Below, one piece after another: positions 5,889 to 60,804 of a stretch of 64,000 nucleotides of DNA. This DNA is from Candidatus Poribacteria bacterium. GTDB taxonomy: Bacteria; Poribacteria; WGA-4E; WGA-3G. Each line of letters begins with the position of its first letter. The first letter of the stretch is position 1. The stretch is from NCBI GenBank assembly GCA_965205015.1, contig OZ242029.1:1632001-1696000 (forward strand). The letters are read 5' to 3'. The notes under the pieces are model-generated. The model was not told where the DNA came from. It saw only the letters and a list, made by a program, of their open reading frames with translations, and made no database searches. Made by a program: the position numbers and the translations under genes.

Positions 5889-7100
5889 TTACGCAGAAGC
5901 ATTTGTGGATTTCAGAATCGGATGGTTGGATTCAACGGAGCAGCCTACGATCTTGTCAAACAAAACAATAGGACTTACAACCCCTAAGCCAAAGGAAGCT
6001 ATCCCTTCCTTAAGAATATTCAGCGCAGCGTTCTCGTCGCGGTCAAGGTGCGTATTGCAACTTGGACACGTCCAGTCCCTGTCTGCTAACGTGAGGTTTT
6101 GATTTTTATGTCCACAAACACAACAGGCTTTTGTCGTCGGAGACCACCGATTGATTTTCAGCACGGAGCGAATACGCTTATGAGACTGGTGCTTGAGTTT
6201 CCGCAGGAACTCACCAAACGCAAGATCCGAGACCTGTTTCCCCCACAAGCGTTTCATACCCGCAAGGTTCAGGTCCTCAAAGAACAGTATATCAAACTTA
6301 CGACACAGTTCTATCGCCAGTTTCCAATGGTGATCTGTCCGTTGGTTCGCCGTTTTCTTGTGGATACGCGCAACGGTCTTGCGTTCGCGTTCTTGGTTGT
6401 TAGACCCTTTGACCTTACGGGAATACGCCTTTTGTGCTTCCGCTAACTTTTCAGCGTTCTGTTTGTAGAACATCGGAGACGTATATCTATGACCATCACT
6501 GCCAATCAGAAAGTCCTTGATACCCATATCAAACCCTTCAGCTTTACCCGTCTTGGGTTCGATCTTGATTTCGGTATAGTCTTCTGTCAGCGTAATATAC
6601 ATATCTCCGAGGGCATCTCGTGTTACGTGAACTTCGATGATGTGTCCCTCGATTTCACGATGCAGGGCGAAGCGATACCAACGTCCATTCAGTCGGATTT
6701 TATAGGTCGGGTGATTTCTTTGGTTTTTCTGCTTATCCAACACTTTTTCAAGCTTGACCTGTTCACCCCGAAACGTCATCCCTTTGTGTTTCTTGCAAGA
6801 CTTGAACTTTGGGTGACCTCTGCCAAGGGTTTTCATTTCTCTAAAGGATTGTGCCAAACGCTTTAGCACATTTTGCAACGCCCAAGAGTAAGGGATATTC
6901 CAATGCTGATACTTCTCAAGTTTCTTCAGTTTCGTCAAATGTTTCGACAGTTTCACATACGAAAGTCCCTTACCATAGCGGCGGTAATATCGCATACAGA
7001 GTGCCAAAAAATGATTTTTCACAACGCCACAGATATTGCAATCGTCGTGCAAGTGACGCAACGTCTTATCCTTGAAAAGTTTATGGGTCGTGTTTCGCAT
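5889..7100 (-). CDS. tnpB: TnpB RNA-guided endonuclease, intact RuvC D-E-D
   Basis: GHPKFK, EGFDMG, FFEDLNL, CCVC...CPSC, DRDENAA. Confidence 0.93.
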   Translation of the reverse strand: MRNTTHKLFKDKTLRHLHDDCNICGVVKNHFLALCMRYYRRYGKGLSYVKLSKHLTKLKKLEKYQHWNIPYSWALQNVLKRLAQSFREMKTLGRGHPKFKSCKKHKGMTFRGEQVKLEKVLDKQKNQRNHPTYKIRLNGRWYRFALHREIEGHIIEVHVTRDALGDMYITLTEDYTEIKIEPKTGKAEGFDMGIKDFLIGSDGHRYTSPMFYKQNAEKLAEAQKAYSRKVKGSNNQERERKTVARIHKKTANQRTDHHWKLAIELCRKFDILFFEDLNLAGMKRLWGKQVSDLAFGEFLRKLKHQSHKRIRSVLKINRWSPTTKACCVCGHKNQNLTLADRDWTCPSCNTHLDRDENAALNILKEGIASFGLGVVSPIVLFDKIVGCSVESNHPILKSTNASA

Positions 7101-7106
7101 GGACTT

Positions 7107-7195
7107 TCAAGTCTCAAGTCTTTAACCCCTATACAGTGGGTGAGACCGACACGTAACCTTGCGGTTATGCTGTATATGTCGGTCCAACTTGATAT
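7107..7195 (-). ncRNA. Structured pseudoknotted 5' leader RNA, copy 2
   Basis: Minus strand: tcaagt/acttga; gaccgaca/tgtcggtc; hairpin taacc-gcaa-ggtta; pseudoknot tatacag/ctgtata; ccc/ggg. Confidence 0.75.
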
Positions 7196-7199
7196 TCTC

Positions 7200-7229
7200 A
7201 TTATACCACACTTTCGGACCAAATGTCAA
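7200..7229 (-). promoter_or_regulatory. sigma70-type promoter of tnpB-2
   Basis: TTGACA-N18-TATAAT on the minus strand. Confidence 0.75.
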
Positions 7230-7601
7230 GCAAAAAATGAACGCTTTGGTCCTTTCCAAGAGGGCGAGACTGTATCCCAAAGCTAAAGCATTGGGTTTTC
7301 GTCTCGGAAGTTTAGATAATTTGTTTCTTATCTGTCTGTACTTAAATTGTTGACAGAAAAATGTATTTATTTTAGAATATTCTTTACGTCAGTACTTGCC
7401 CAGATGTGTAATCCCTGTTTGGGAGGTTTGAATACGTTGTGATATGAAGAACCTACGGTTTTTCCTGCCAAACGCTACTGAAAAGTATTGGATCGACACT
7501 GTTTTATCTGTTTGCAAGTTGCGCACTATCTTCATGGAGTAGGCAACCGGCACGAACGGGTAAGTCTAATCGAGATTTCAGGAGGAAAAGAAAAACGGAA
7601 C

Positions 7602-8792
7602 ATGAAAAAACTTTTGCTGATATTACTACTGATAGGAGTCGTGAGTTTCGGCTGTCGGCAGGAACAGGTCATCACCCAACTTGAAGTGGGTAGGAGTAAG
7701 TTGTTAGACGCAGGGCTCACACTGGAAGCTGTCCAGCATCTTGAGAATGCTGAAAACGAAGAACAAAACAAAGTTGAACCTCGTGCACTCCTAATTATTG
7801 CTTATAGCCATGCTATTTCAACGGGCGCGGCAAGATTGCATAATGTGGAAGCCAGATATCAAACTGAACGTGATCGCCGTGTCGGTGAATTAGGCGAATA
7901 TGAGATGAAGAGGATTCTACATATCCTTGGGGAACGCCATAGGGTTCAGAAAGATGCCATGCAGGTTCTCGTTGATAAAGGGGCGCCCGCCGTGCCTTTC
8001 CTGTTAGAGGACCTCGTTAAAAACCGCTATCGCAACGTCCATGGTGACTTCGTTCAAATTTTGAAAGACATCGGTAGCCCGGCTATTAACGACCTCCTCG
8101 AGGCGGTTGGTGACAGCAAGACACCCGCTGCTGTGAAAATTCAACTCGTCCGTATCGTAGGAGATATAGGAGACGCATCCGCCATCACTAAGTTAGAGGC
8201 ACTCCATAATGCAACCCCTGATGAAGGGTTGAAGATGGAAATTAACACCGCACTCTATCATCTCGGAAACGAAGAGGCCGAATCAAAAATCGTTGAGGGC
8301 TTGACCCATGCGAACCCCGTTGTCCGACGCGCCGCCGCAAAGTCTATGATGTTCCTCAAAGAACACCCAACTGACATGTTGATTGATGCGCTTGACGATT
8401 CCGATGACACCGTGCGTATGGACATTGCTAAAGCGCTGCAGAAATATCCTGACGCGGGTGCTGTTGACGGTCTTGTCGCAATCCTCACAAACGGCTCAAG
8501 TCTCAATACGAAGCAAACCGCTATCGATACTTTGAACCTTTACGCCGAAAACGGACTCGCTGATGGATTGGCTGGACGTTTGATCGTGTTATTAGCGAAC
8601 CCTGAAGTTGTTGACCATGAAGATAGGCTCCGTATCGTTCAACTTCTCAAAAAACCTGCTTTGATAAAACAGATTCAGGAGGCTGACCAGTACGACAATC
8701 TGCCCCATAAGCTTGACGTTTACTTCAGGGAGAACGAAACCAACGATATGGTGAAAGACGCACTCAATGAACTCCTCCTTGTGCTTGAGTAG
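7602..8792 (+). CDS. HEAT-repeat lipoprotein (paralog B)
   Basis: MKKLLLILLLIGVVSFGC lipobox; colinear with paralog A (VGRSKLLD, EPRALLIIAYSH, LKMEINTALY, VVRRAAAK). Confidence 0.85.
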   Translation: MKKLLLILLLIGVVSFGCRQEQVITQLEVGRSKLLDAGLTLEAVQHLENAENEEQNKVEPRALLIIAYSHAISTGAARLHNVEARYQTERDRRVGELGEYEMKRILHILGERHRVQKDAMQVLVDKGAPAVPFLLEDLVKNRYRNVHGDFVQILKDIGSPAINDLLEAVGDSKTPAAVKIQLVRIVGDIGDASAITKLEALHNATPDEGLKMEINTALYHLGNEEAESKIVEGLTHANPVVRRAAAKSMMFLKEHPTDMLIDALDDSDDTVRMDIAKALQKYPDAGAVDGLVAILTNGSSLNTKQTAIDTLNLYAENGLADGLAGRLIVLLANPEVVDHEDRLRIVQLLKKPALIKQIQEADQYDNLPHKLDVYFRENETNDMVKDALNELLLVLE

Positions 8793-32924: not shown

Positions 32925-34997
32925 CTACTCTTCCTCTTCGGTTTTCGACTCGGTGATTACCTTCTGCGCGACATCGTCAGGTGTGATCTCGTAATGTGAG
33001 AATTCCATTATAAAGGTGCCACGGGCACTCGTCATCGACTTGAGATCGATGGAATACCGGAGCATCTCCGAAAGCGGGACGTTTGCTTGGATGATCTGCT
33101 TTCTCCCCAACTGTTCAACACCCATTACTTGTCCACGCCGTCCGTTCAAGTCGCCGATAATGCTCCCCATAAACTGTTCAGGCACCGTAATCGCGACGCT
33201 CATAACCGGTTCGAGCAAGCACGGATCGGCTTGTTCGGCAGCGGCAGAAAAGGCGATAGAACCCGCGATCTGGAACGCCATGTCCGAAGAGTCAACAGGG
33301 TGATATTTGCCATCATAGAGATCAATTTGGATATCGACGATTGGGAAGCCAGCAAGTAAACCTCTATCCATTCTCTCACGGATGCCTTTTTCGACAGCCG
33401 GGATATAGTTACGCGGGATCGCGCCGCCGACGATGTTGTTAACAAACTCAAAACCTTCACCGCGTTGCAAAGGGGCAAGATTAATCGTGACATCGCCGAA
33501 CTGTCCTCTTCCACCGGATTGGCGTTTATGTCTACCTTGGACGCTCCGAACGCTGCGACGAATCGTTTCCCGATATGGCACTTTTGGCGGTGAGAGTCCC
33601 GTCTCGACGCCGAATTTGTCTGCCATTCGTTCCCGATTAATGTTAATGTGCAGGTCTCCGAGCCCAGAGATGAGAAGTTGTTTCGTAACTTCGTTACGTT
33701 CAATCCTAAACGTCGGATCTTCTTCGGACATCCGTGTGAGTGATGTTATCAACTTTTCATCGTCGCCTTCGCGCGTCGGGTGGATAGCATAGGAAATAAC
33801 GGAGTTTGGGAAATCAACACCTGGGAGTTGAATTGAGGCGTCTCTGTCGCAGAGCGTATCCCCGGTCTGGGTCACAGCAAGTTTCGTGAGTGCGCCGATG
33901 TCGCCTGCTTCTACCTGTGGTGTACTGATTGCCTCCTGACCGTTCATGAAGGCGGTTTTTCCAAGGCGTTCAATTTGTCCTTGCGTCGAGTTACTGACCT
34001 GAGTATCCCCTTGTAATGTGCCAGAGTAGACACGGAAGAAGCTCAATTGCCCCGCAAACGGGTCGGCAATCGTTTTGAAGACAACAGCGGACATCGGTGC
34101 ATCCAGTGAGGGTTCGCGACTGTCCTCTTCATTCTCTGCAGATGTAACTGCGCCTGCGTCGACCGGAGATGGGCAGCCGATCAACAGCATATCCATCAAT
34201 TGTTGCACGCCGATATTGTTTAAGGCAGCACCACAAAGCACAGGGGTAAACTGGTTCTCGAAAATCCCAAGTTGCAAGCCGTTCTGAATCTCTTCGTCTG
34301 ATAGCTCTCCTTCAAAAAACTTCTCAATGAGTTCATCGTCGCTTTCTGCAGCGACTTCGACGAGTGCTTCGCGGGTTTCTTCAGCCTGTGTCTCCAAGTC
34401 CGCGGGGATTTCGGCTTTTGCAGCACGCTTACTTCCATCGGGTTGCAAATAAGCCGCCATCTGTATGACATCGACGACACCGGCGAACTGCTCCTCTTTG
34501 CCGATCGGGAGTTGAATCGGAACCGCCCGAGTCTCTAAAATTTCTTCAACGCTTGCGAGTGCGTTTTCAAAACTGGCGTTCTCTTTATCCATTTTATTGA
34601 TAAAGATGAGGCGTGGCAGTTCATATTTGTCTGTGACTTCCCATACCTTTTCGGTGCCACCTTCGACACCGGTAGTTGCATCGACAACGACAATGACAGC
34701 GTCGACGACTCGGAGTACACTGTGGAGGTCGCCATAAAAATCTTCTGCGCCCGGAGTATCAATCAGATTTAGTTTATGTCCTTCCCATTCTGCAATACAG
34801 ACTGAACAGTTGAGGGTTGTTTTACGTTCAATCTCGTCAGCGGCATAGTCAGCTACAGAATTTCCACTATCGACAGCCCCCATTCGCTCAATAGCACCCC
34901 CGTTATAAAGCATCGCTTCAACGAGTGATGTTTTGCCTGCTCCTGAATGCGCGATAATTGCAATGTTTCGGATCTGGTCTGTCCTGTATTGTTTCAT
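32925..34997 (-). CDS. fusA: Elongation factor G paralog (EF-G2-like)
   Basis: AHSGAGKT, DTPG, NKMD, EEDPTF, YRETI, KRQSGGRGQFG, DGKYHPVDSS, LLEPV; not in an str operon. Confidence 0.9.
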   Translation of the reverse strand: MKQYRTDQIRNIAIIAHSGAGKTSLVEAMLYNGGAIERMGAVDSGNSVADYAADEIERKTTLNCSVCIAEWEGHKLNLIDTPGAEDFYGDLHSVLRVVDAVIVVVDATTGVEGGTEKVWEVTDKYELPRLIFINKMDKENASFENALASVEEILETRAVPIQLPIGKEEQFAGVVDVIQMAAYLQPDGSKRAAKAEIPADLETQAEETREALVEVAAESDDELIEKFFEGELSDEEIQNGLQLGIFENQFTPVLCGAALNNIGVQQLMDMLLIGCPSPVDAGAVTSAENEEDSREPSLDAPMSAVVFKTIADPFAGQLSFFRVYSGTLQGDTQVSNSTQGQIERLGKTAFMNGQEAISTPQVEAGDIGALTKLAVTQTGDTLCDRDASIQLPGVDFPNSVISYAIHPTREGDDEKLITSLTRMSEEDPTFRIERNEVTKQLLISGLGDLHININRERMADKFGVETGLSPPKVPYRETIRRSVRSVQGRHKRQSGGRGQFGDVTINLAPLQRGEGFEFVNNIVGGAIPRNYIPAVEKGIRERMDRGLLAGFPIVDIQIDLYDGKYHPVDSSDMAFQIAGSIAFSAAAEQADPCLLEPVMSVAITVPEQFMGSIIGDLNGRRGQVMGVEQLGRKQIIQANVPLSEMLRYSIDLKSMTSARGTFIMEFSHYEITPDDVAQKVITESKTEEEE

Positions 34998-35289
34998 ACG
35001 TCCAAAAATTTCTCCTTTTACTGTTAACCACACGGAATAGAGCGAGCTACGCCGTTTAAAGATAAATCTTAGCACAATATGGCAAAAATGTCAAGAAAAT
35101 ATTTCTATTAATGCTGTCCCAAGCAAAAACGCCTGACATAACGTGTCGGATTTAAGGTATAATTAATTCAATTAATTATGGAAACTGTTCTCTATAAAAC
35201 TAAGTCAAGCCCGTAGGGGTTGACGGCTCTGGAGAAATGAACTTCAAAGTTCAAACTTCCGTGCTTTACCCGCAAGGTAAATTAAAAAT

Positions 35290-46888: not shown

Positions 46889-47173
46889 CAGAAGTGCCTC
46901 CTCTGCAAGGCAAAGATACTTAAATTCCAAGCAATTTCTATAAGCAATTTTTATGCCAATTGAACTTTGGTTCTTATGTTAACGTAGATTGCCACTTTGT
47001 AGCATAAACTGTAAGTTTGTGAAAATGTCTTTAAGTGACGTTATGTGTAAATATAAACACATAGGGACGGATGTGGCGATCCGCCCCTACACGTGAAGGG
47101 TTTTTAAGTGTAGTATTTGCGCCAAAACTCGTTCTGAGTAGAATTGAGTACTTTGATGCCAGCGTAAAAGCCT

Positions 47174-49002: not shown

Positions 49003-49232
49003 GATGAGTACCTCATTTTTAGATGATGGGTCTTGAAGTCTTTCTTAATCCCCGCCATACCTGTTTAATATACCACGAAATGCCGAATATGTCAAGTGTA
49101 TAAAGTTTTGACACAGAGCCATTCAATTTTTCTGTAAACCGTTTTGCAGATTTGTCCGTTTGCAGTTGGAATATTCTCTGTAACCTTTAAAGGACGTATC
49201 CCTTACAGAGATAATATAGGAGGCGTAACCGA

Positions 49233-49736
49233 ATGACAAAAGAGCAGTACGACAGTTGTTATAACACAGGCACCTATCTGACCCTTCCGTATGGTGAGTT
49301 TGTTGAAGCTTATGCGCTTGGGTTGTTAGCACATAAAGACACAGCACAAAGGGTGCGGGAATGGGTTTATGAACAAGGATTTGAACGCGCCGCCGATCTT
49401 GACATAACAGCCTCGGCGGAATTGTGGTCCTTGTTTCGGAATCTCACGCGCGAGCTGTGTATTGAAATGTTGAAGTTACCTGAAGCAAAGAATCCACTTG
49501 CATGCCCTGATTCTGGGCGGGCTGCAGTGCCTACCACTAAACTTGAGGTGTTTTACCAATTGCTGCGAGAGGTGCCTTTCAAGTATAAGCGCGCTTTGCT
49601 CTTGACGTACCTATTTGAAGAGAGTCCGGAACAGATTGCCTATATCTTAAATAAGCCTCCTGAGGAAGTGCATGATCTGATAGATAGAGGAAATGCTGAG
49701 TTAGGCGTAGCGTTCCTTCGTGTTTCGATGCGTTAG
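49233..49736 (+). CDS. Degenerate ECF sigma-factor-like protein
   Basis: sigma2-like AYALGLLAHKDTAQRVRE; sigma4-like VPFKYKRALLLTYLFEESPEQIAYILNKPPEEVHDLIDRG. Confidence 0.65.
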   Translation: MTKEQYDSCYNTGTYLTLPYGEFVEAYALGLLAHKDTAQRVREWVYEQGFERAADLDITASAELWSLFRNLTRELCIEMLKLPEAKNPLACPDSGRAAVPTTKLEVFYQLLREVPFKYKRALLLTYLFEESPEQIAYILNKPPEEVHDLIDRGNAELGVAFLRVSMR

Positions 49737-49850
49737 AACTTATGAAGGGTGCTGCCCGAGCCGTTCAATGTAAGGACGAGCTGTACTCTCGCTCTGTCTA
49801 TGCCGGTCCTAACACCAACGAAAAAAATAATGGCACAAAGAGGTGAATAA

Positions 49851-50384
49851 ATGACTAAAGACGATTTCAGCTTGTGCTATAACAAAAAAAACACTAAAGA
49901 TAGTAAGACTTTGGGAGCCAATGTTTTTGGCCTTGCCTACCGGATCGTTCCGGACGCCGACGCAGCGTGGGAAATTCGGGAGGAGGTGATGGAGATAGGT
50001 CTCAAACGTTGTGCCGAATTTGAAGTAGAAACGGCTTGGGAGGGGAAGGGACACTGGCCTGGCTTAAAAAAACTAACACGTGACCGCTGCGAAAGAATGA
50101 TTTCACGACCGGCGCGAGAAAATCCGCTGGCAAAAGAGACATTAAACCAGTGGCCTTATGACCCATGGGCAGCCGCCATTGCAAACCTGTCTTTTAGATA
50201 TCGACAAATTTTTCTTTTAGGTATGGGATTTAGTAATTGCCCGCGAAACATATACGCCTTACTAAATAAACACAGGTCCAAAAATGAGAAGAAACTTACG
50301 CTGAAAGAGGTCAAAAATCTTCAGGTGAAGGCATCAACTCTCATGGTAACAAACCTCACGGAATCTTATTTACCTAGTACTTAA
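49851..50384 (+). CDS. Degenerate ECF sigma-factor-like protein (paralog of the previous ORF)
   Basis: Shared start MTKxxxxxCYN; VFGLAYRIVPDADAAWEIREEV; LTRxxC and NPLA; AIANLSFRYRQIFLL. Confidence 0.55.
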   Translation: MTKDDFSLCYNKKNTKDSKTLGANVFGLAYRIVPDADAAWEIREEVMEIGLKRCAEFEVETAWEGKGHWPGLKKLTRDRCERMISRPARENPLAKETLNQWPYDPWAAAIANLSFRYRQIFLLGMGFSNCPRNIYALLNKHRSKNEKKLTLKEVKNLQVKASTLMVTNLTESYLPST

Positions 50385-50395
50385 AGGAGAATCCC

Positions 50396-52561
50396 TTGGA
50401 CGGAATTATACATCCTAATGTAGAGCAGGTCTGCCGGAAGTACATCTACAAAGATGGGGCATCAGCGGAAATCGCTACTCTCGTTCATGAAAATCCTATT
50501 TCGACTGAAGACCTTGATACCCGTGTGCTGACTTACCTAATGGAAAATAGTCCTTACGCGCGTCACTGGGATACTATAGCTGCGCGTCTAAGAGTGGGCG
50601 ATATTTACACCCAAAAAGCTTTTAACACCCTTGACGCGCCAGCACAGCAGTGTTTACGCTTACGCGCCCTTAATGGTTGTTCTATACCCGAAATTGCCTC
50701 AACGTGTCGGCTGACCCCGCAAAAAGTTCATGCAGTACTGAGAGCGGCGCGATACAATTTCTGGAAAGCGTTTGTTATCTCCGAGGCGCGTGTTCTCCAC
50801 AAATGTCGCCAGTTCGTCTATTCTGATACCGATGCGATGGAGGCTGCGATCGCCAGCTGCTCCCACAGTTGTTCAATTTCCAAGACAGACGTGCTCGCCT
50901 ACTTAGACACCACGCCGGTATCTTGGGAGAATTGGGATACCTTGGCAATTGACTTCAAGGCATTGGACGCTGGAACCGCAGCGCGTGATGTCCAAGAAAT
51001 TTTCGAGACGCTTGAAGCCTCCGAGAAAGCCCTCCTCCGTTTGCGAGTCGTCGATGGACACACCATTGCGACAATCGCGAGGACGCGTGACGAGACAAAA
51101 GCGCATGTCGAAGCGTCCTTAATAACCTATCGGACAAAGTTTTGGAGGACACTCGTTGAAACAGATTGCGTCGTCCTGCGCGAATGCAGACGCTTAATTC
51201 ATGATGATAGAGACGCTGAAGAAATCGCGGTCGCTATCCAGAAGCGTGGCGTACCTGTCGAAAACGTGCGTCGACACATATATGACTATCTGGTGGAACG
51301 TTGGGATACCACACCCGACTGGGACGATCCGGCGTTTATTAAAGTTGTCGAAGCCGTGGTTGACCCAACTGTTCCAAAGAGTGCTGGCTTTGAAGCCGCA
51401 AAGACAGCCTATAATCTGCTTGAATATCCAGAGCAAGACCTTTTGAAATTCAAAGGGGTCGAGGGTGTATCAGATGAAATAATTGCGCAAGTATCCATGG
51501 AACCTCTTAATCAGGTTAAAGAGAAAGCCGGTGCAGCAAAGGAGACGTTTTGGAAACTCTTCACGCGTGAACGGTGGTCCACGCTGGCGTACTTTATCGA
51601 AAAACTCTGTGAAGACGCTGATTCGTCTTCTACTGATATCCTCAAGGTTGAGGCGGAGTACCTCGCCGCTAAGGCGGCTTATAATTCACTGGATGAAATA
51701 GACAAAGAGGTCTTGAGACAGCGGTGTGTGCAAGGACTCTCTGTAGAAGAAATCGCCGCTAAACAGCGGGTCTTCCCTATTGAGGTTGCGGAAACTTTGA
51801 CGGAAGCTCGTAAAAAATTCTATCAAGAATTTTTAGCCGAAATCTATCGTCTCTGGGGGCTGAAGACACCCATTGAAATCGGAGGGGACGAGGATGATAT
51901 AAGTAACGCTTGGGAGACACTACAGGAACAACTTTACAAATTCGTTCCAGAGAATTTCCGCGGTTGGTTAACGACTGCTGCGCAACACTCAAAACTCGAT
52001 TCTAAGAAAAAAGATTACCACCGGAGACTTATTCCCAAAGACCATGGACTCACCTATATGAATCCTGAAGGCGAATTAGTCCCTGTCATATCCGTGCGTC
52101 CACTACAGGCAGATGAAGTGCTTGAAAGAGAAGAATCGGAAAAAAAAGAGTTAAAGTTTTGGGAGAATGAAAGGGAACGCTGGCATGAATTGCTAACAAG
52201 GACCACCGAAGCAATTTTAGGGTCTAAAAAGCCGGAAAAAAAGTTATATCTTTTGATGAATTACATTCTCCAACCGAAACTCAACGAGCTCAGGGGCGCC
52301 GAAACCCGCGTGCCTCACGAGTTTCAGAAGCCCGGCGAGGCGATGGCGGTATCCCACGTCGATCACCAATATCAATCCGAAGTCACGCAGACATGGATCG
52401 GTGAACCCATAGATGCAACGGATAGGAGCATCCGCCGCTACGTTGGCGAAATCATATCCCTTGTGGAGGCGTCTGCAGAAGAGGTTGGCATAGAAGGAAC
52501 AGAACTTGTTGCAGGTTGTGCCCCTATAAAAGAATCGGATGTCAAGAAGAGACGGGATTAG
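50396..52561 (+). CDS. Multi-repeat sigma70-like protein with four sigma4-like HTH units
   Basis: Four L-x4-(Q/E)-x-L-x-L-x3-G-x-S-x2-IA...V...ARxxF-like units, interleaved CRxxI/VxxDxxAxE segments, and a late FRGWLTTAAQH sigma2-like segment. Confidence 0.7.
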   Translation: MDGIIHPNVEQVCRKYIYKDGASAEIATLVHENPISTEDLDTRVLTYLMENSPYARHWDTIAARLRVGDIYTQKAFNTLDAPAQQCLRLRALNGCSIPEIASTCRLTPQKVHAVLRAARYNFWKAFVISEARVLHKCRQFVYSDTDAMEAAIASCSHSCSISKTDVLAYLDTTPVSWENWDTLAIDFKALDAGTAARDVQEIFETLEASEKALLRLRVVDGHTIATIARTRDETKAHVEASLITYRTKFWRTLVETDCVVLRECRRLIHDDRDAEEIAVAIQKRGVPVENVRRHIYDYLVERWDTTPDWDDPAFIKVVEAVVDPTVPKSAGFEAAKTAYNLLEYPEQDLLKFKGVEGVSDEIIAQVSMEPLNQVKEKAGAAKETFWKLFTRERWSTLAYFIEKLCEDADSSSTDILKVEAEYLAAKAAYNSLDEIDKEVLRQRCVQGLSVEEIAAKQRVFPIEVAETLTEARKKFYQEFLAEIYRLWGLKTPIEIGGDEDDISNAWETLQEQLYKFVPENFRGWLTTAAQHSKLDSKKKDYHRRLIPKDHGLTYMNPEGELVPVISVRPLQADEVLEREESEKKELKFWENERERWHELLTRTTEAILGSKKPEKKLYLLMNYILQPKLNELRGAETRVPHEFQKPGEAMAVSHVDHQYQSEVTQTWIGEPIDATDRSIRRYVGEIISLVEASAEEVGIEGTELVAGCAPIKESDVKKRRD

Positions 52562-52600
52562 ATGGCGGGGAATCAGGGGTATCAAGTTGTAGACCTCTGG

Positions 52601-53425
52601 GATCCGCTACAAGATTTCCTGTTTTGTCCGATTGGTACCCAGTTATCTCTTAAGTGTTTTAGGAAAGGGCAGTTTGAAAACTAATATCTAACGTGCGTGA
52701 AATTCACGCCACTGATAAATATCTAACGAAACAAGGAGAGACTCATGTCGATTACGAAGTTGCAAAATGGCGGCGTCGAGTATAAAATCCGAGTGAAGTC
52801 TGGGGATTTAGCAGCCAAAGGTGAAGGGATGATGAGGATTGTGCCTGCGACTGATGGGCAATTCTCGGTCAACGTGTTATTCCCCAATGAAACGGGTACG
52901 CTGCAGCCTTTAGATTTAACCGCCGTGGAACGTGTCGCATTGGTGGAGAGAAAAATTGGCTGGTTTGGCAAGAACCAATGGGTAAAACCTCTGGTGATCA
53001 CAGCAGGTAATTTCATCGGGGTTCCGCTCGTACTTGACGCGCTTGTAGGTGGTATCCAAACTGCTGGTGAAGCAATTCAGATGCTTGCCGGGGGAACTTT
53101 TATGGCTACTACCTATGGTACTGGGGTTTACACAGGGACGAGACTCACGCGCTTGGCAAGATTCATTCTCACAACCGAAGATGAGAAGCATGCCGTTTTG
53201 GAAGGTTCTGAGAACGCTTTCTGTTTTCTGGATGGTGTGTATACGGCGCCGAACATTCAATTGGAAGAGGTAGCATCTGAAATCCCGGAGGCGCCGGCAG
53301 CAGATGAAGCCTCTGAGGCACCGGCAGCCGATCCTACACCGGCACCGGCTTAAGGGACAGAATCTACGAGTGGGGCTTCCCGCCTCACTCGTTGGCTTTG
53401 GAAGGAATCAAAAATGCGTCTCTTT
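52601..53425 (+). repeat. Duplicated cassette copy 1 (leader, gene, hairpin and start of the next gene)
   Basis: Colinear with 54851-55649 over long identical stretches. Confidence 0.92.
52745..53353 (+). CDS. Small membrane protein with a Gly-rich hydrophobic insert (family member 1)
   Basis: RBS AAGGAG; near-identical paralog at 54994. Confidence 0.8.
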   Translation: MSITKLQNGGVEYKIRVKSGDLAAKGEGMMRIVPATDGQFSVNVLFPNETGTLQPLDLTAVERVALVERKIGWFGKNQWVKPLVITAGNFIGVPLVLDALVGGIQTAGEAIQMLAGGTFMATTYGTGVYTGTRLTRLARFILTTEDEKHAVLEGSENAFCFLDGVYTAPNIQLEEVASEIPEAPAADEASEAPAADPTPAPA

Positions 53426-53878
53426 AAAGAGCCGAACTTTCCGCTCGATGTACTTAAAGGCACAGCCGCACCTCTCGGCACGGGACACGCCTTCTGTATC
53501 CGAGAGGACCCGAATATTGGGCTCCACGGCTGGTTCAAATTTGTGAGCAACAGTCAGAGGCAACAGTTGGCACTGACAGACGTATCCCGACTTGAGATGT
53601 CTCGGGGTATGTTGGAGGTAAATCCTCGAAAATGGGCGGCACCTACAGCGGTTGCAGCGCTGAGTCTTTTCACCCCATTACCTGCGTTTCTGGAATTCGT
53701 TGGAATTGCAGTTGCAGCGGTGTCCAGTGGTTTCACGAAAACGCGTGTGCGTTTCGTCTGTGAGACAGTCGGGGGTGATCATTTTACGGGGAGTCTTTCT
53801 CTAACGGGTTTCGTTGCAGCGAGAACCTTGTGGCAGAAACAGGGAGAATCTCGGTTAAACCCGATGTTCCTAAATTAA
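53414..53878 (+). CDS. Small membrane protein (family member 2)
   Basis: LALTDVSRLE...hydrophobic hairpin...VRFVCET. Confidence 0.7.
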   Translation: MRLFKEPNFPLDVLKGTAAPLGTGHAFCIREDPNIGLHGWFKFVSNSQRQQLALTDVSRLEMSRGMLEVNPRKWAAPTAVAALSLFTPLPAFLEFVGIAVAAVSSGFTKTRVRFVCETVGGDHFTGSLSLTGFVAARTLWQKQGESRLNPMFLN

Positions 53879-54482: not shown

Positions 54483-54740
54483 CTATGCCTCACCGGTTTC
54501 ATCTCGGACACATCGAAAGCCGAGCGACATGTTCGTTAACATTCTTGTGTTCCCATTTCGTTGAAAAACACGTAACGTTTGGTACCAATCTGCGTAGCTT
54601 CCACCTCGGGACACTGCGTGGCTCCGCGGATTGATGCCTTCAAAGTTCTCTACTATCCATTGAAGGTTCTGCTTTGTCGCGACCGGATTTTTAAAAGGTG
54701 AGTTCTCATAGAAGTAGGGTTCGTAGTCATCAAGGCACCC
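54483..54740 (-). pseudogene. C-terminal fragment of an FGE-sulfatase (SUMF1/C-type-lectin fold) protein
   Basis: WEGCLDDY..YFYENSP.KNP...SRGGSY...LGFRCVR; the N-terminal part is missing next to the duplication junction. Confidence 0.7.
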
Positions 54741-54850
54741 CTCCCATCTGAACGTGCGATGAATCGCACTACTATGAACTGGCCCGCTTGTAGTGGGGCA
54801 ATTCATGGTTCTCCCGTCGATTACCGAAATATTTTCTGAAACTTCATTGA

Positions 54851-55649
54851 GGTCTGCTACGAGATTTACCGTTTTGTCCGATTGGTACCCGGTTATCTCT
54901 TAAGTGTTTAAGAAAAGTCAGTTTGAAAACTGATATCTAACGTGCGTGGACTACACGCCACTGAGAAATATCTAACGAAACAAGGAGAAACTCATGTCGA
55001 TTACGAAGTTGAAAAATGGAGGTGTCGAGTATAAAATCCGAGTGAAGTCTGGGGATTTAGCAGCCAAAGGTGAAGGGATGATGCGGATTGTGCCTATGAC
55101 TGATGGGCAATTCTCGGTCAACATGTTATTCCCCAGTGAAACGGGTACGCTGCAGCCTTTGGATTTAACCGCCGTGGAACGTGTCGAATTAGTGAAGAGA
55201 AAAATTGGCTGGTTTGGCAAGAACCAATGGGTTAAACCGCTCGTCGTTACAGCGGGGAATTTCATCGGGATGTACATCGCGGCGCCGTTCGTAATTGGCG
55301 CATTCAGTGCTCACATAGCTGAAGCAGCAATGCTCGTCGGGGGTACTTTCGTTGCGACAACTTATGGTGCTGGCGTGTATACTGGCTCGAAACTCAATCG
55401 CTTGGCAAGATTCATTCTCACAACCGAAGATGAGAAGCATGCCGTTTTGGAAGGTTCTGAGAACGCTTTCTGTTTTCTGGATGGTGTGTATACGGCGCCG
55501 AACATTCAATTGAAAGAGATAGTCCCTGAAACCTCTGAGGAACCGGCAGCCGATCCTGCACCGGCACCGGCTTAAGGGACAGAATCTACGAGTGGGGCTT
55601 CCCGCCTCACTCGTTGGCTTTGGAAGGAATCAAAACAATGCGTCTCTTT
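54851..55649 (+). repeat. Duplicated cassette copy 2
   Basis: Colinear with 52601-53425. Confidence 0.92.
54994..55575 (+). CDS. Small membrane protein (family member 4, duplicate of 52745)
   Basis: Near-identical N- and C-terminal parts with a divergent hydrophobic centre. Confidence 0.8.
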   Translation: MSITKLKNGGVEYKIRVKSGDLAAKGEGMMRIVPMTDGQFSVNMLFPSETGTLQPLDLTAVERVELVKRKIGWFGKNQWVKPLVVTAGNFIGMYIAAPFVIGAFSAHIAEAAMLVGGTFVATTYGAGVYTGSKLNRLARFILTTEDEKHAVLEGSENAFCFLDGVYTAPNIQLKEIVPETSEEPAADPAPAPA

Positions 55650-55896
55650 GAAATTCTGCGAATTTTAGAAAAATTGCGTTCAACAAGATCAAACACGGAT
55701 TCGACAGAGGCACCCGCAGTTCAGTCGCACCCCTCGTCTACCGAAGGCACGGAGCGTGAAGCAGAGGGGTAGGTTACGGTGCGGTGAGGGACCCGGACGG
55801 CAATCTGCGAACTTTTACCGGCGGTTCGTTAGCGGTCCTAGAGTTTGGACAGTTGTGAAACTTTGAGAATCTTCATAGGAGAAAGGAACTTTACAG

Positions 55897-58398
55897 ATGA
55901 ACACCCAATCCCACGAGGGACACACCCCCGATACTTCCATTGATCTGCGAACCGGACGCGTTGAGGAAACGATACTTGAAAATCCGGAACTCGTCCAAGC
56001 AATTGAGAGCCACCTGCCCGAGACGGTCCCTTCCCAAATTGACCGTTTCATCCAGCAGTACCTCCGATTAGAACATCTGAAAGCGTTCTTGGCGGCGACT
56101 CCGACTGCCAAGGAGGGTTTTGAAGCCTTACTTGATAAAGCCACGCGTGCCCTCTCATATCAACGTCCGTATCGGATCGCCTTGGTTGGCCGGACGGGTG
56201 TTGGGAAAACGCAAGTGCTGAATACCTTGGTCGGTAGAGAACTCTTAGCCAGTCAGCAGGGACAACCCGTGACCGGCGCTATTACGGAGATTTTCCAAGA
56301 CGCTTCTGAAGGCGAAGAGCGGGCAGTGATCCAGTACAGAGATATGGGAAATATCCGCAGACTCATCCAACAGGAACTCATTGAGCGGTTTGGGTTAACC
56401 AACGCGGATTTAGGGATGCCAGATGAACTGAGTGAAGAATTTGCTACGACGCTTCGAGAGATAGAACCCCCTTTGGGCAATGATCCCGAACGCTTTAAAA
56501 ATGTGCAAACCGCACTTGCAAATGTGATTGATCAGTATCTTCGTTTCAAAGATGCGGATGTGCCGACAGAATTCTCCTTGGCAGATAAGGATGCGTGTGC
56601 GGAACTTAATTCATTGATTACCGAGAACAGCGAACGGAATCAGGATGAAAACACTCGGATAGTCGGGTTAGTCCACTCGGTTGCTTATTACATTCACGGC
56701 GACGTTCATCAGGAAATCGTGCCGGAACTGCAGCTGCCACGGAACACCTGCCTTGTTGATCTGCCCGGTATTTCAGGGGCACCCTTGCACGACATCATTA
56801 TCACTGAAGGAATTCAGGACGCCGATGCCGTGGTGTTCATCGTGAATCCGAAGCGGGTGGGTCAATCAGATGAAAAGGCATTGGTCGGTCGGATTCGAGA
56901 GGCTATCAGTCTGAATGGCGAGCTGGATGCTGCAGAACAGATTTTCCTTGTTCTCAATGCGATTGATGAAAGTGCTGTTGACCCGGAACGCATGGATAGG
57001 GCACCGATGCTGGAGCTTGCGCGTGAATTGTACGTCGACGCTGGAAAAATGCCGAACCGAGATGGCGATGTCCCGTATTTTGAGTTGTCTGCGTTGGCGG
57101 CATCTTTGGCGCGGGTCCAGTTGCAAGGCGGCACGCTTAGCGACCCACGCAAATATGCGGCTATCGTTCAAACCCTCGCCCCCGATGCGGTCCTCGAACG
57201 CGCGGGGACGGACGCTGAGATTGACCATCGAGCGGTGTTGGCAGGGAGTGGCATCTCAAAATTGGTCACAGCCCTGAACGATTTTGCTGGCACACGCGTT
57301 GCGAAACAGATTCAGACTGCCAACGAGGCGATAACAAAGATTGTGAACCGCCTTATCAGTCAGTATCAGATGCAAGTCGCCTCAAAGTCTTCAAAAATCA
57401 GTGGAGACTTTGAGAGTCGCGATGAGGAGAAGCTCGTTCAACGGTGCCGCGAACTTGAAGATTTACTCTTAACCTTTCGGAATACACAACTGAGGAATAA
57501 GGCAGATTTGACGAGCGAGTTACGCAATCAAGCCAATACACTGTGCGACGGTGTTGACGCAGCCGTCCGGGAACAACTGCCGCATCTGTGGAAAAAAAAT
57601 GTTGCCCGGGATACAGACGTCGTCCGTGCGGTGTCGTCTTATACGGTTCAAGCGCGACAGTTGGTTTCGGAGGTTGAGGCGATGGTCTGGTCGGAGTTGA
57701 CCTTCCGACTGAAGTATCTTGCCACCTCGCTTGTGGATCATTATGAGACTGTGTTTGCAGCGGATGCGATGCAAAAGCAGTTGATTGACGGGAGTTACGG
57801 GCATCCTTTGGCGATGGAAGCGTTTGGAGACACCGCGATCGCGGCACTTTCCTCAGAGATGCGGCGCGGTTTGGAAGAGTTCAGTGAGCGGTTAATCGTG
57901 GCGTTTATTCCGGAGCCAGCGTTCCGTTTCATTTCACCAGGGCAAGACGCAAGGCTCAAGACGAAATCTGCACGCGGGAACCTGAGCGGTTTACCGAGAC
58001 TCCCGAAAGCACTGACCCCCATAAATGGACACAAAAACGGAGGAAAGGTTTTAGCTACCTCTGATGACTTGATGGCAATAGTGGCGCGGATTCCACCGAC
58101 ACCTTATGTCGAACCGAGCGTTTTTGACCCGTTTGTTCAAGCGGTGCGTGAACGTTATGCGTCTGTGGTGCTGGTTAACGGCGTAAACGCACTCGTCAAT
58201 GTGTATGAATACGAGATGTTGAAAGCCGAGCGATCCCTCCATACGAACATTGAGAAGTTATTCCGGCAGTTCCGGGATACGCGACTTTCGGATCCGGCGT
58301 TGTTTGAGCGTATGTTGAGAGATACAACCGATCTGACGGCGCGTCAGGAGATTAACGATCTGAATATGAAAATTGCTGAACTCTCTGAAATACAGTAA
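55897..58398 (+). CDS. Dynamin-like GTPase
   Basis: G1 GRTGVGKT, G2 PVT, G3 LVDLPG, G4-like LNAID, long helical C-terminus. Confidence 0.8.
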   Translation: MNTQSHEGHTPDTSIDLRTGRVEETILENPELVQAIESHLPETVPSQIDRFIQQYLRLEHLKAFLAATPTAKEGFEALLDKATRALSYQRPYRIALVGRTGVGKTQVLNTLVGRELLASQQGQPVTGAITEIFQDASEGEERAVIQYRDMGNIRRLIQQELIERFGLTNADLGMPDELSEEFATTLREIEPPLGNDPERFKNVQTALANVIDQYLRFKDADVPTEFSLADKDACAELNSLITENSERNQDENTRIVGLVHSVAYYIHGDVHQEIVPELQLPRNTCLVDLPGISGAPLHDIIITEGIQDADAVVFIVNPKRVGQSDEKALVGRIREAISLNGELDAAEQIFLVLNAIDESAVDPERMDRAPMLELARELYVDAGKMPNRDGDVPYFELSALAASLARVQLQGGTLSDPRKYAAIVQTLAPDAVLERAGTDAEIDHRAVLAGSGISKLVTALNDFAGTRVAKQIQTANEAITKIVNRLISQYQMQVASKSSKISGDFESRDEEKLVQRCRELEDLLLTFRNTQLRNKADLTSELRNQANTLCDGVDAAVREQLPHLWKKNVARDTDVVRAVSSYTVQARQLVSEVEAMVWSELTFRLKYLATSLVDHYETVFAADAMQKQLIDGSYGHPLAMEAFGDTAIAALSSEMRRGLEEFSERLIVAFIPEPAFRFISPGQDARLKTKSARGNLSGLPRLPKALTPINGHKNGGKVLATSDDLMAIVARIPPTPYVEPSVFDPFVQAVRERYASVVLVNGVNALVNVYEYEMLKAERSLHTNIEKLFRQFRDTRLSDPALFERMLRDTTDLTARQEINDLNMKIAELSEIQ

Positions 58399-58482: not shown

Positions 58483-60804
58483 CTACAAAAAATAGCCGAG
58501 GTCCTGAATGAATGTCCGATTTGTTGCAGCAAATGCAAGGTATTGCGGGGACATGCTTAGAGAAGTGATTGCCTCATTATTAATCATCTCAGCTGGTATC
58601 TCCAGCAAATCATACTTCTTAATTCCTCGAAATTTTGTTTCCGCGAACAACTTTCGCCAATGGGGTTTCCAGTATAGACGCTTATTGAGAAAAACTGCGC
58701 GCATAAAAGAGGAATCTATAGTCATGCGACATAATTTTCTATCTTTTGTGGCTACTATAAAATGGTTGAAATCAAAATACGGCCTATCAATGTCATCTGC
58801 CAGGTCATTTGTAATGATAGAAGTAAATTCATCACGCAATTTCCAACTATAATGCGGATGTTCCGTGGTTCCAATCCGCCACATTTTAAATAGGTTATCC
58901 GTATCTTTTGATAACCAGAACTTCCCGAAGTGGCCGTGCTTGATAAAACCTACCCAAGTAACAGGGGCCGAATGTCGCCTCCAAACAGACTCTTCTTTAT
59001 CAACCCATGGTAGGTGAAGTTGGACTGTTCCATCTTGCCCCGCAGAGGCGATGTGTCCACCATCGGACGACCATGAGACCCAATTAACCCATCCTTTATG
59101 TCTGCTAAGTGTTTGCTTATTTTTTTTCTCAACTACGTCCCACAATTTAATGGTCTTGTCCCGACTACCCGAGACGAGAAACGGGCCGTCGGGGGCAAAC
59201 GCAATAGAGGTAATAAAGTCAGTGTGCTCCGTGAGTTCAGCGGATCTCCGAGTTTTTAGTTCATGCAATTGGATAGAGTTTTCCGCCGCTACGGCTAAGA
59301 ACATGCTGTCGCTGGAAAAAGCAACGGAAGTGACCGCATACCCAGCATCCAAGACATACGCAGCATCGACAAACGGACCCTCCAAAAGGACAGGTTTCCG
59401 CGTTCTCTTCGCGGAAACATCTATCTCCGCGGAAACATCCCATAGATAGACAGTTGAACCTGTCACTGTCGCGAGGTGTTTGCTATCTGGAGAAATGGCA
59501 ACCGACGATACAGCGTTAGGGTGGTCAATGATTGCCTGCCCGCTTTCCGTGTACGTAACAGTAGGGTTGTCGGTTGTATCCTTCTTTTTCTTTCTGATCG
59601 AGGGGGTGTCATGCTTGTCCTCTTTTTTCTCGGTTGTGATCGAGGGGGTGTCATGCTTGTCCTCTTTTTTCTCGGTTGCGAGGATCTTCAGAGGGCCTCG
59701 CACGGGAGCGTATTCGGTCTCAGGCATGGATTCAAACACTGTAAGTCCGAAAGAATTTTCAAGGTGAATTTTCAAGCCTGGGAGCCTTGAACTACCCCCT
59801 ACCAAGTGGATTACCGGTTCTTCTCTGCCCTTATCCTTCAGTTCCGCTTTAATCCTTTCTATATGAGGCTTAACTGCCTCGCCTATACGCTCGACTTGTG
59901 TATCAATAATCGGCTGAATATCGTCTTTGGTCAATACGACTGTTTGTCCTCGGAGGACGGATATCTGGTGCCTTAAGCTGTCCCAACTTTCGGGATAATC
60001 ACAATATTCCTCTTTACAGCGGCGGACCTGCCTCCGGAAAAATATTCTGTCTGCCGCTACTTGGTTGCTATTGTTGCTTTTTCTTTTGACAACCTTAAGC
60101 AGCTCGGCGTCCACATCTCTGCCTCCGATTGTTTTGCAGTCTGTGATTTCTATATTGTAGGGATTGCTATCGTCCTCTGAACGGTGTAGATAACTAAAGT
60201 CTAATGTCCAGCCCCCGCAGTCCAGGATCACAATGTCATCCGTAGTTTTTGCGCCCATGGCTTGAAACATCTGTGCTGCTGCTAAAGGCTCCGCTACGAC
60301 CTCGATCGTCTCGAACCCTGCGTTCTTGGCACTTGTCATCAAAATTGCTATCTGATCAGAGTCATATCGTGGGGTATACGTGAGATAGACTGTAGTTGGC
60401 GGCTTCCTTCCAACAAAAACAGGATGCTTTCTTGCCTTTTCGCACAGTTCGGTAAGGAATACAGTCATTAGGTGTTCCGAGGGGTTTGTCTTGCTGGGAT
60501 CTACGCCGAGTAACTTAGAAAGTCGTTTTTGATACCTCCCCAAATCCCTTTTAAAATCCAGTATGGGATTCCATTTTCTTGAAGTTGTTTTAAGTTTCAA
60601 GTCGTGTTCAATGATACGTTCAGCTTCTTCACCTACAATTATCTTTCCGGAGTTCTTTTCACTGGCAAAAACACTCGGAGTGTAAGGCTTAGAGTTCTCT
60701 CCCCACGTCATGAGTTCTATTTGCTCTGTATTTGGATTATAGAACGCCATTTTCGTGCGTGTATGGCCGAAATCTATAGAAACTGCGTCGTTAATATCAG
60801 TCAT
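58483..60804 (-). CDS. Hsp70-like ATPase fused to WD40 repeats
   Basis: SIDFGHTRT, TPSV, AEPLAAA, LDCGGWTLD, GGRDVD, LVGGSSRLP; WD40 units HTDFITSIAFAPDG..SGSRDKTIKLWD. Confidence 0.88.
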   Translation of the reverse strand: MTDINDAVSIDFGHTRTKMAFYNPNTEQIELMTWGENSKPYTPSVFASEKNSGKIIVGEEAERIIEHDLKLKTTSRKWNPILDFKRDLGRYQKRLSKLLGVDPSKTNPSEHLMTVFLTELCEKARKHPVFVGRKPPTTVYLTYTPRYDSDQIAILMTSAKNAGFETIEVVAEPLAAAQMFQAMGAKTTDDIVILDCGGWTLDFSYLHRSEDDSNPYNIEITDCKTIGGRDVDAELLKVVKRKSNNSNQVAADRIFFRRQVRRCKEEYCDYPESWDSLRHQISVLRGQTVVLTKDDIQPIIDTQVERIGEAVKPHIERIKAELKDKGREEPVIHLVGGSSRLPGLKIHLENSFGLTVFESMPETEYAPVRGPLKILATEKKEDKHDTPSITTEKKEDKHDTPSIRKKKKDTTDNPTVTYTESGQAIIDHPNAVSSVAISPDSKHLATVTGSTVYLWDVSAEIDVSAKRTRKPVLLEGPFVDAAYVLDAGYAVTSVAFSSDSMFLAVAAENSIQLHELKTRRSAELTEHTDFITSIAFAPDGPFLVSGSRDKTIKLWDVVEKKNKQTLSRHKGWVNWVSWSSDGGHIASAGQDGTVQLHLPWVDKEESVWRRHSAPVTWVGFIKHGHFGKFWLSKDTDNLFKMWRIGTTEHPHYSWKLRDEFTSIITNDLADDIDRPYFDFNHFIVATKDRKLCRMTIDSSFMRAVFLNKRLYWKPHWRKLFAETKFRGIKKYDLLEIPAEMINNEAITSLSMSPQYLAFAATNRTFIQDLGYFL
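59595..59678. repeat. Perfect 42-bp tandem duplication in the Hsp70-WD40 linker
   Basis: tgatcgagggggtgtcatgcttgtcctcttttttctcggttg x2, a 14-codon unit containing TEKKEDKHDTPSI. Confidence 0.95.

Follow-up and report, generated by a model that had tools for sequence, protein, structure and literature searches.

Members of the sigma-70 family have, by definition, a single sigma2 domain and a single sigma4 domain, and regulation is normally added to this layout by separate anti-sigma factors or by non-sigma extensions. Sigma factors of the extracytoplasmic function (ECF) type usually comprise ~170–200 amino acids (aa). Here we describe a gene that departs from this plan, located in a 64,000-nucleotide stretch of contig OZ242029.1 (the window) from Candidatus Poribacteria, an uncultured sponge symbiont. 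It encodes a 721-aa protein, referred to below as the poly-sigma protein, in which four sigma4-type helix-turn-helix (HTH) domains lie N-terminal of a sigma2-like segment and a fifth HTH follows it. The described systems closest to it are ECF sigma factors with extensions, the split pair SigO-RsoA and PhyR. According to the main text of PMC7826278, N-terminal extensions of ECF sigma factors are rarer and generally shorter than C-terminal ones and SigO-RsoA is the only split form named; "tandem", "two ECF" and "multiple ECF" are absent from that text. PhyR is presented as an anti-anti-sigma factor that acts by sigma-factor mimicry in section 2.2 of PMC8999054. Full-text literature searches returned no description of a multi-sigma4 or sigma-like-repeat architecture, in agreement with the first-pass annotation of this DNA, which had called the architecture undescribed; domain-architecture databases lay outside these searches, so unrelated multi-sigma4 proteins may exist. 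By title and abstract, the papers found on "tandem sigma" are unrelated, and those found on Poribacteria and sigma factors include nothing relevant. The architecture is new for the sigma-70 family.

The poly-sigma gene (50396..52561, plus strand, stop included) starts with TTG. For analysis the protein was cut into U1 (residues 1–127), U2 (128–250), U3 (251–395), U4 (396–490) and a C-terminal domain (491–721), all encoded on the plus strand. There are three full units of ~125 aa and one truncated unit, and every one of them ends in a sigma-70 region-4 HTH. U1 (50396..50776) has a C-R-x-x-[IV]-[YH]-x-D-x-x-A-x-E-I-A N-half followed by the HTH and is covered by a domain of the unit hidden Markov model (HMM) at residues 1–127 (E 3e-62); its HTH (residues 73–127, 50612–50776) has a net charge of +6, and the best Pfam Sigma70_r4_2 stretch is 73–119. 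U2 (50777..51145; unit HMM domain 126–254) carries an HTH with a net charge of 0 at residues 200–250 (50993–51145), which is also the stretch found with NCBIfam. U3 (51146..51580; unit HMM domain 251–390) is the unit common to all family forms, and its HTH (residues 336–392, 51401–51571) has a net charge of -2. U4 (51581..51865) is truncated, is without the C-R motif and matches positions 57–133 only of the unit profile; the net charge of its HTH (residues 426–482, 51671–51841) is likewise -2.

Pfam Sigma70_r4_2 recognizes three stretches of the protein (E 1.4e-13; 50.7 bits, cut-off 25.7) and Pfam Sigma70_r4 recognizes residues 430–455 (28.1 bits, cut-off 24.1). The general ECF model of NCBIfam, TIGR02937, scores 47.4 bits (cut-off 42.9), through the sigma4 end of the profile only. 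When a profile of 36 full units from the family was aligned by hhalign with a profile of 15 ECF sigma factors, the probability was 97% (E 8e-11); restricted to sigma4, the alignment gave E 3e-11. In an AlphaFold2 model of U3, U4 and the C-terminal domain, built from 9 sequences, the mean predicted local distance difference test (pLDDT) score is 57, and the two sigma4 parts, those of U3 and U4, reach 70–89. The U4 HTH was matched by VIA-align to solved sigma region-4 domains with Z 8–9.7, and among the 50 rows listed most belong to sigma factors or their region-4 domains, including SigK (4nqw_A, Z 9.5, root-mean-square deviation 0.9 over 63 residues), SigL (3hug_K, Z 9.7) and SigC (2o8x_A, Z 8.5). 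Predicted helices of 23–28 residues run out of each recognition helix in the AlphaFold2 model and join the heads. The poly-sigma protein thus contains four sigma-70 region-4 HTHs, the region 4.1–4.2 fold being found by Pfam, NCBIfam and VIA-align alike. The first-pass annotation had proposed concatenated ECF-like units with four sigma4-type HTHs, and Pfam, NCBIfam, the unit HMM, hhalign and VIA-align agree with it on this point; the repeats do adopt sigma4-type folds, judging from the Z scores of the U4 HTH and the model confidence of the sigma4 parts. The eight motifs that it had quoted are all present, the short ones at residues 12–27, 136–151 and 263–278, the sigma4 ones at 79–101, 206–228, 342–364 and 432–454, and that with FVPENFRGWL at 516–535.

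A profile search of PDB sequences gave two rows, neither significant (a designed repeat, E 0.047; the RpoE of 9n9q, E 0.083), and Foldseek returned no match at E<=1e-3 for the model of U3, U4 and the C-terminal domain. Chain C of PDB 9n9q, a 261-aa RpoE from an RNA-guided transcription complex, also matched the core weakly in the structure comparisons (Foldseek E 0.11, VIA Z 7.6). Its repeated appearance probably reflects shared sigma4 folds only.

The relationship among the units is evident from pairwise Smith-Waterman comparison, with 200 shuffles for each pair. The z values are 21.8 for U1/U2, 19.6 for U1/U3, 14.2 for U1/U4, 12.3 for U3/U4, 11.8 for U2/U3 and 6.7 for U2/U4, and in every pair 0/200 shuffles reached the observed score. 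Against the C-terminal domain, U1, U2 and U4 score at chance and U3 gives z 4.6. BLASTP of the protein against itself found the identity match alone and no repeat match. Because the other units are 26–38% identical to U1 and there is no DNA-level repeat inside the gene, the unit duplications are old.

The N-halves of the units are a different matter. Over the 36 units their motif reads L-[RQ]-x-C-R-[RQK]-x-[IV]-[YH]-x-D-x-D-A-x-E-I-A, with Cys invariant (36/36), R in 33/36, the first D in 35/36, A in 32/36, E in 24/36 and the last A in 35/36. In profile-profile alignments the N-halves alone matched ECF region 2.1/2.2 with a probability of 11% (P 0.003), or of 20% (P 0.001) in a shifted register. 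The alignments always reach one place, where the D-x-D-A-x-E of the units falls on the DAED motif of region 2.1/2.2, the acidic beta-prime contact motif of sigma factors as given in section 3.4 of PMC8999054. The N-halves are acidic, with net charges of -4 to -6 in the poly-sigma protein and a mean of -5.5 over the 36 units; their model confidence is low (AlphaFold2 pLDDT 35–45), and hhalign of the N-halves against the C-terminal domain gave nothing significant. On these alignments, the units are not full sigma2-plus-sigma4 copies, and the N-halves appear to keep at most an acidic helix similar to region 2.1/2.2. The first-pass annotation had described the three short motifs as sigma2-like; a weak alignment to region 2.1/2.2 is the part of that description that holds.

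The C-terminal ~230 aa, present in every relative, looks by sequence comparison like a diverged ECF-type module of sigma2 plus HTH. Its sigma2-like segment (residues 491–546, 51866..52033, plus strand), containing GGDEDDISNAWETLQEQLYKFVPENFRGWLTTAAQHSKLDSKKK, has DEDD at the DAED position and then YKFVP-x-NFRGWL. This segment aligns with a sigma2-only ECF profile of 15 sequences with a probability of 89% (hhalign, P 2e-6) over 56 columns, which span regions 2.1–2.4. At the DAED position, E is kept in 14/18 sequences and D in 16/18; in YKFVPxNFRGWL, P, N and L are each kept in 18/18. A late segment resembling sigma2 had been noticed in the first-pass annotation, which missed the fifth HTH and the remainder of the diverged module. 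A linker of ~115 aa (52034..52381, plus strand) extends from the sigma2-like segment to the last HTH. It has no family match, is predicted to form a beta-hairpin and a long helical hairpin (AlphaFold2 pLDDT 50–79) and includes the motif KKPEKKL, which is invariant in the family alignment. The fifth HTH (residues ~663–695, VTQTWIGEPIDATDRSIRRY; 52382..52480, plus strand) is modeled with pLDDT 75–81, and its counterpart is recognized by Pfam in the distant relatives P0020 (HTH_24, E 1.5e-5) and P0022 (Sigma70_r4, E 0.0017). The nearest protein-language-model clusters for residues 483–721 include carriers of Sigma70_r2 (47% of 138 members in one cluster and 100% of 92 in another) as well as carriers of Sigma70_r4, which is a lead and not a test.

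The poly-sigma protein, 721 aa long, has four sigma4 HTHs N-terminal of a sigma2-like segment and one further HTH C-terminal of that segment. This is not the layout of one sigma2 followed by one sigma4, and the protein is no standard ECF-group member. By analogy, it would resemble most an ECF sigma factor with a regulatory extension, or a sigma mimic. Like the extended ECF sigma factors described in the main text of PMC7826278 (ECF121/BldN, ECF36/SigC), it has sigma4 HTHs and extra sequence N-terminal of the C-terminal module; an acidic DAED-type motif and F-x-x-W-L in that module, and membrane-protein genes directly downstream, are further likenesses. In contrast to those proteins, its extension consists of degenerate sigma-like units (one to five across the family), each with a sigma4 HTH, adding 125–600 aa, it has no curated sigma2 match, and its last HTH stands behind the ~115-aa linker. 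The likeness to PhyR, as far as section 2.2 of PMC8999054 describes it, lies in a degenerate module similar to sigma2 and sigma4, in which promoter recognition may be lost, and in weak matches to PhyR models. Unlike PhyR, the poly-sigma protein has no Response_reg or other receiver domain in Pfam and NCBIfam, no NepR-like partner was recognized among its neighbors with Pfam, PADLOC and PHROGs, there are several sigma-like units instead of one, and the host belongs to the Poribacteria and not to the Alphaproteobacteria. As with SigO-RsoA, two adjacent, co-inherited sigma-related genes are present that may need each other. In that pair, however, sigma2 and sigma4 are split between the proteins, whereas here the small partner is by alignment a complete mini-ECF and the large protein has many sigma4 copies and its own sigma2-like segment.

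The homolog search that the first-pass annotation had suggested revealed a tiny family with a varying number of units. A word-based search found 16 proteins including that of the window; the others are three of 720–747 aa, four of 856–904 aa and eight of 452–498 aa. One of the short forms (P0009, 65% identical) is encoded on the same 5.65-Mb contig as the poly-sigma gene, outside the window. Searched with a profile of the shared core, 1.84 billion representatives yielded 12 proteins at E<=1e-3, eight of them at E<=1e-10; the three weakest of the 12 are ordinary ECF sigma factors of 185–213 aa that were matched on sigma4. By the unit HMM, the poly-sigma protein has three full units and one partial unit, and 17 relatives have one to four full units and one partial unit. 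In front of the C-terminal domain and a truncated unit, the short forms have one full unit, the 720–747-aa forms three and the long forms four, the fourth being split by a small internal duplication in P0006; the distant relatives P0020 (438 aa) and P0022 (355 aa) have just one unit before the C-terminal domain. The number of sigma4 heads thus varies among relatives (1, 2, 4 or 5).

When the 36 full units are placed in a tree, one clade (support 100/99) collects the last full unit from each form, and the added N-terminal units form a second clade with U1-type and U2-type groups that track position. In P0006 and P0007, the extra unit is a duplicate of the U1 type. Because the units group by position, the expansion was stepwise and each unit has been kept since. 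These results establish that the poly-sigma protein arose as a degenerate ECF-sigma-like module was serially duplicated in tandem. The family occurs in 1/175 genomes of the phylum Poribacteria and in 0/5 of the Poribacteria genomes closest to the host by elongation factor G (the gene for this factor lies at 32925..35075 in the window). The elongation factor G of the window shares up to 95% identity with that of Poribacteria metagenome-assembled genomes, and nearly all of its 80 best-matching loci are assigned to Poribacteria. Pattern scans of genome, metagenome and viral contig collections and a tblastn search against plasmids found no relatives; a phage or plasmid origin of the gene was considered, and there were no matches to it. 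The family is real and conserved, and it is very rare and patchy.

A family so small and scattered could be taken for the product of a decaying gene whose repeats came from slippage or mis-assembly, and a dN/dS ratio (nonsynonymous to synonymous substitution rates) of 0.39 over 462 codons, between the poly-sigma gene and its ortholog at a second locus (G127), denotes moderate constraint only. Most of the evidence speaks otherwise. The frame is open over 721 codons; a protein identical to it (P0002, 721 aa) is encoded on the 5.65-Mb contig; and three relatives with 66–81% identity and the same unit count, three full and one truncated, lie on other contigs. A single independent contig of 4218 bases, from a different study, spans 49200–52734 gap-free with 20 differences and contains the whole gene, which excludes mis-assembly as the source of the architecture. 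Unit positions are kept across relatives, and the age of the duplications, seen in the divergence of the units and the absence of a DNA-level repeat, does not fit recent slippage. A functionless expansion or an artefact is therefore largely refuted, and we consider it highly improbable.

The poly-sigma gene does not stand alone. Its putative ribosome-binding site, AAGGAG at 50384–50389, lies 6 bases 5' of the TTG and shares bases with the TAA stop codon of the gene before it, so the two genes are probably translationally coupled. Promoter and terminator scans gave nothing above shuffled expectation. The preceding gene (49851..50384, plus strand) encodes a small, diverged ECF-like protein of 177 aa. 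Three homologs of this protein aligned with the ECF profile with a probability of 88% (hhalign, P 3e-6), spanning sigma2 and sigma4, and 20 homologs were found in 5.8 billion clusters. Ten of the 16 poly-sigma entries and a small-gene homolog are on contigs of equal size, a proxy for adjacency, with two such pairs on the chromosome of the window (P0009 and P0043 make up the second), and a 171-aa counterpart adjoins the poly-sigma gene in G127 too. Together with this small ECF-like gene, the poly-sigma gene forms a module of two genes. A second small ECF-like gene (49233..49736, plus strand; 167 aa) is a paralog of the 177-aa gene (28% identity, BLASTP E 9e-16); its product reaches 25.4 bits with Pfam Sigma70_r4_2, just below the cut-off of 25.7, and the gene has no counterpart at the G127 locus. 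Alignments by hhalign of the small upstream proteins with the units or the C-terminal domain were not significant. Distant relatives of the small partner protein (E 1e-10 to 1e-16), mostly of ~225 aa, occur in 34/175 Poribacteria genomes without a poly-sigma gene; at the one such locus that was inspected (L085 1480–2055, a 191-aa open reading frame, ORF), the context is different, the neighbors being oxidoreductase-like genes by eye.

Downstream, the gene order at the two loci is largely shared. In G127, the 171-aa gene and a 499-aa short-form poly-sigma gene are followed by genes for proteins of 199 aa, 154 aa and 110 aa, an 856-aa dynamin-like GTPase, a 300-aa protein and a 657-aa protein that is Hsp70-like by eye. 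The window keeps this order with extras, namely the 167-aa gene, a 170-aa gene and a 2.25-kb segmental duplication. A 202-aa protein (52745..53353, plus strand; hydrophobic segment ~79–110) is 73–75% identical to the 199-aa G127 protein in like position, and a 154-aa protein (53414..53878, plus strand; hydrophobic segment ~75–108) is 84% identical to that of 154 aa. Neither has a family match in Pfam, PADLOC or PHROGs. The 202-aa protein was considered as an anti-sigma factor and dropped; its N-terminal part is beta-rich by eye and no model recognizes the protein. The conserved cassette ends with an 833-aa dynamin-like GTPase (55897..58398, plus strand; Pfam Dynamin_N 1.1e-10, PADLOC LeoBC 1.3e-15, LeoA also matched), whose similarity to the 856-aa protein of G127 was judged by eye. 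PADLOC and PHROGs found nothing besides the dynamin-like genes among the neighbors of the poly-sigma gene, and the 64-kb window contains no polymerase subunit genes. Upstream of the first small sigma-like gene, the window has one copy of the sequence TTCTG[GT]AAA (49130–49138), and two copies spaced 20 bases apart precede the cassette in G127 (L082 14442 and 14462, minus strand). The only other match in the window is at 50759, inside the poly-sigma gene, and there is none in 20 kb of G127; the element may be a conserved operator or promoter, a candidate status that has to be read against the ~1 chance match expected per 64 kb and against two loci, too few to build on.

How such a protein might act is suggested mainly by its ancestry and its neighbors. 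We tentatively favor a sigma-derived regulator in which the C-terminal module works on RNA polymerase, the N-terminal part supplies sigma4-type heads, and both act with the small ECF-like protein on neighboring genes; this is quite possible, if still short of probable. The C-terminal module would dock on the polymerase core as an ECF sigma factor does, with the acidic sigma2 helix on the beta-prime clamp helices and the last HTH in contact with both the beta flap and the -35 region. Extra sigma4-type heads, for further -35-like DNA sites or for protein partners, would come from the N-terminal array; the basic U1 head would be the best candidate for DNA binding, and the acidic inner heads may serve in protein docking or autoinhibition. 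The co-transcribed small ECF-like protein possibly acts together with the array, and the adjacent membrane-protein and dynamin-like GTPase genes would be the likely targets.

A stronger form of this idea, a multi-headed sigma factor with one sigma2-type anchor on RNA polymerase and a variable magazine of sigma4 heads, is in our view unlikely. If true, one holoenzyme could recognize -35 elements that are composite or alternative, connect several promoters, or hold more than one polymerase or anti-sigma factor at a time. The regulon would be retuned as units are gained or lost, and a new principle of promoter selection or sigma regulation would have to be added to the sigma-70 family.

Several observations weigh against an action of the protein as a sigma-like factor on RNA polymerase. 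Pfam Sigma70_r2 has no match in the whole protein, nor in six sub-pieces at E<=10, and no NCBIfam model recognizes a sigma2 domain anywhere in it; of the domains for which the first-pass annotation had recommended a Pfam comparison, Sigma70_r4_2 was thus recovered, in its three stretches, and Sigma70_r2 was not. The ECF profile used with hhalign consists of 15 sequences only (178–303 aa), and the fifth HTH is collinear with ECF sigma4 in that comparison without reaching significance. The AlphaFold2 model of the C-terminal domain has a mean pLDDT of 64, Foldseek gave no match to it at E<=1e-3, and VIA gave no significant structural match, the best Z being 4.7; ECF sigma2 parts (5uxx_C, 5zx2_F) are in the top five VIA rows at Z 4.4–4.7, which is noise level and no better than helical hairpins of unrelated proteins. 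Of the four sigma4 heads only that of U1 is basic, the other three being neutral or acidic, whereas 15 ordinary ECF sigma4 parts have a mean charge of +1.7; the protein as a whole is acidic (net -26, isoelectric point 5.3). Binding to proteins would fit these charges no less than binding to DNA. An equal-size contig match to a homolog of the small gene is missing for the four long forms and two other entries, and the gene context comes from two loci only, the window and G127.

The charges in particular suit a rival reading, in which the protein is a sigma mimic or decoy of the PhyR kind. Degenerate units without DNA binding would then capture an anti-sigma factor or a polymerase surface (beta flap, beta-prime clamp helices), and the number of units would set how many partners one molecule titrates, thereby releasing or restraining the neighboring small ECF-like sigma factor. 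Acidic N-halves and three heads without positive charge are in line with this, as are a weak match of residues 26–122 to the NCBIfam PhyR model (E 3.4e-4; 20.5 bits against a cut-off of 240 bits) and a contact of the small upstream ORF with the PhyR sigma-like Pfam model (E 5e-4). The pairing with a small ECF-like gene, which could be the regulated sigma factor, points the same way. Anti-sigma genes usually sit directly downstream of sigma genes, and membrane-protein genes occupy that place here; however, their products are beta-rich by eye in their N-terminal parts, unlike helical anti-sigma domains, and neither a NepR-like nor a zinc anti-sigma domain was recognized in the neighbors with Pfam, PADLOC and PHROGs. 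Pfam also finds no receiver or other sensor domain in the protein, the strongly basic U1 head (+6) is what a DNA binder would be expected to have, and the C-terminal sigma2 motifs would be needless for a pure decoy, though a decoy for beta-prime would need them. We regard mimicry as a serious but rather doubtful alternative.

If sigma ancestry were historical only, the protein could instead bind DNA independently of polymerase, as a repressor, activator or architectural protein of the cassette, placing up to five HTHs on arrays of short sites and possibly forming oligomers through the C-terminal domain. Five HTHs on one chain, joined by the long predicted helices, would fit such a role; the long helical hairpin modeled in the C-terminal domain could mediate dimerization, and TTCTG[GT]AAA upstream of the cassette at both loci might be the site. 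The chance expectation given above for that motif tempers the last point, the inner heads have no positive charge, and the most conserved feature outside the HTHs is the set of C-terminal sigma2-like motifs, which would be unexpected without polymerase contact. A polymerase-independent binder therefore seems rather unlikely. Whichever reading applies, the family, conserved and under selection, indicates that a repeat protein can be built from the sigma module itself, with four or five sigma4 heads before a sigma2-like anchor and a number that varies between close relatives. If the protein acts on RNA polymerase, it would be a natural test of how many -35 readers one holoenzyme uses, or a case of multivalent sigma mimicry, and a template for synthetic multi-input sigma switches.

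Some features of the surrounding DNA deserve mention. The 2.25-kb segmental duplication is recent (52598–53413 and 54848–55652, 87–97% identity) and comprises a 193-aa copy of the 202-aa gene plus the first part of the 154-aa gene. The 110-aa gene of G127 seems degraded in the window, where pieces that match it are found at 55650–55831. A 107-aa ORF (54483–54806, minus strand) resembles by eye the C-terminal end of the 300-aa G127 protein (6906..7808, minus strand), with a shared ...GFRCV-type ending, and may be a truncated remnant. Three dynamin-like or LeoBC-like GTPase genes and an Hsp70-WD40 fusion gene adjoin the cassette (55897–58398 on the plus strand; 58483–60804, 60828–62609 and 62606–63991 on the minus strand); this cluster could be a regulated target or a defence or membrane-remodelling module. 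Farther upstream, a gene for a PBP1C-type penicillin-binding protein (38286–41093, minus strand) lies directly downstream of a gene for a 1945-aa bacterial alpha-2-macroglobulin (41093–46930, minus strand), the two being a known gene pair.

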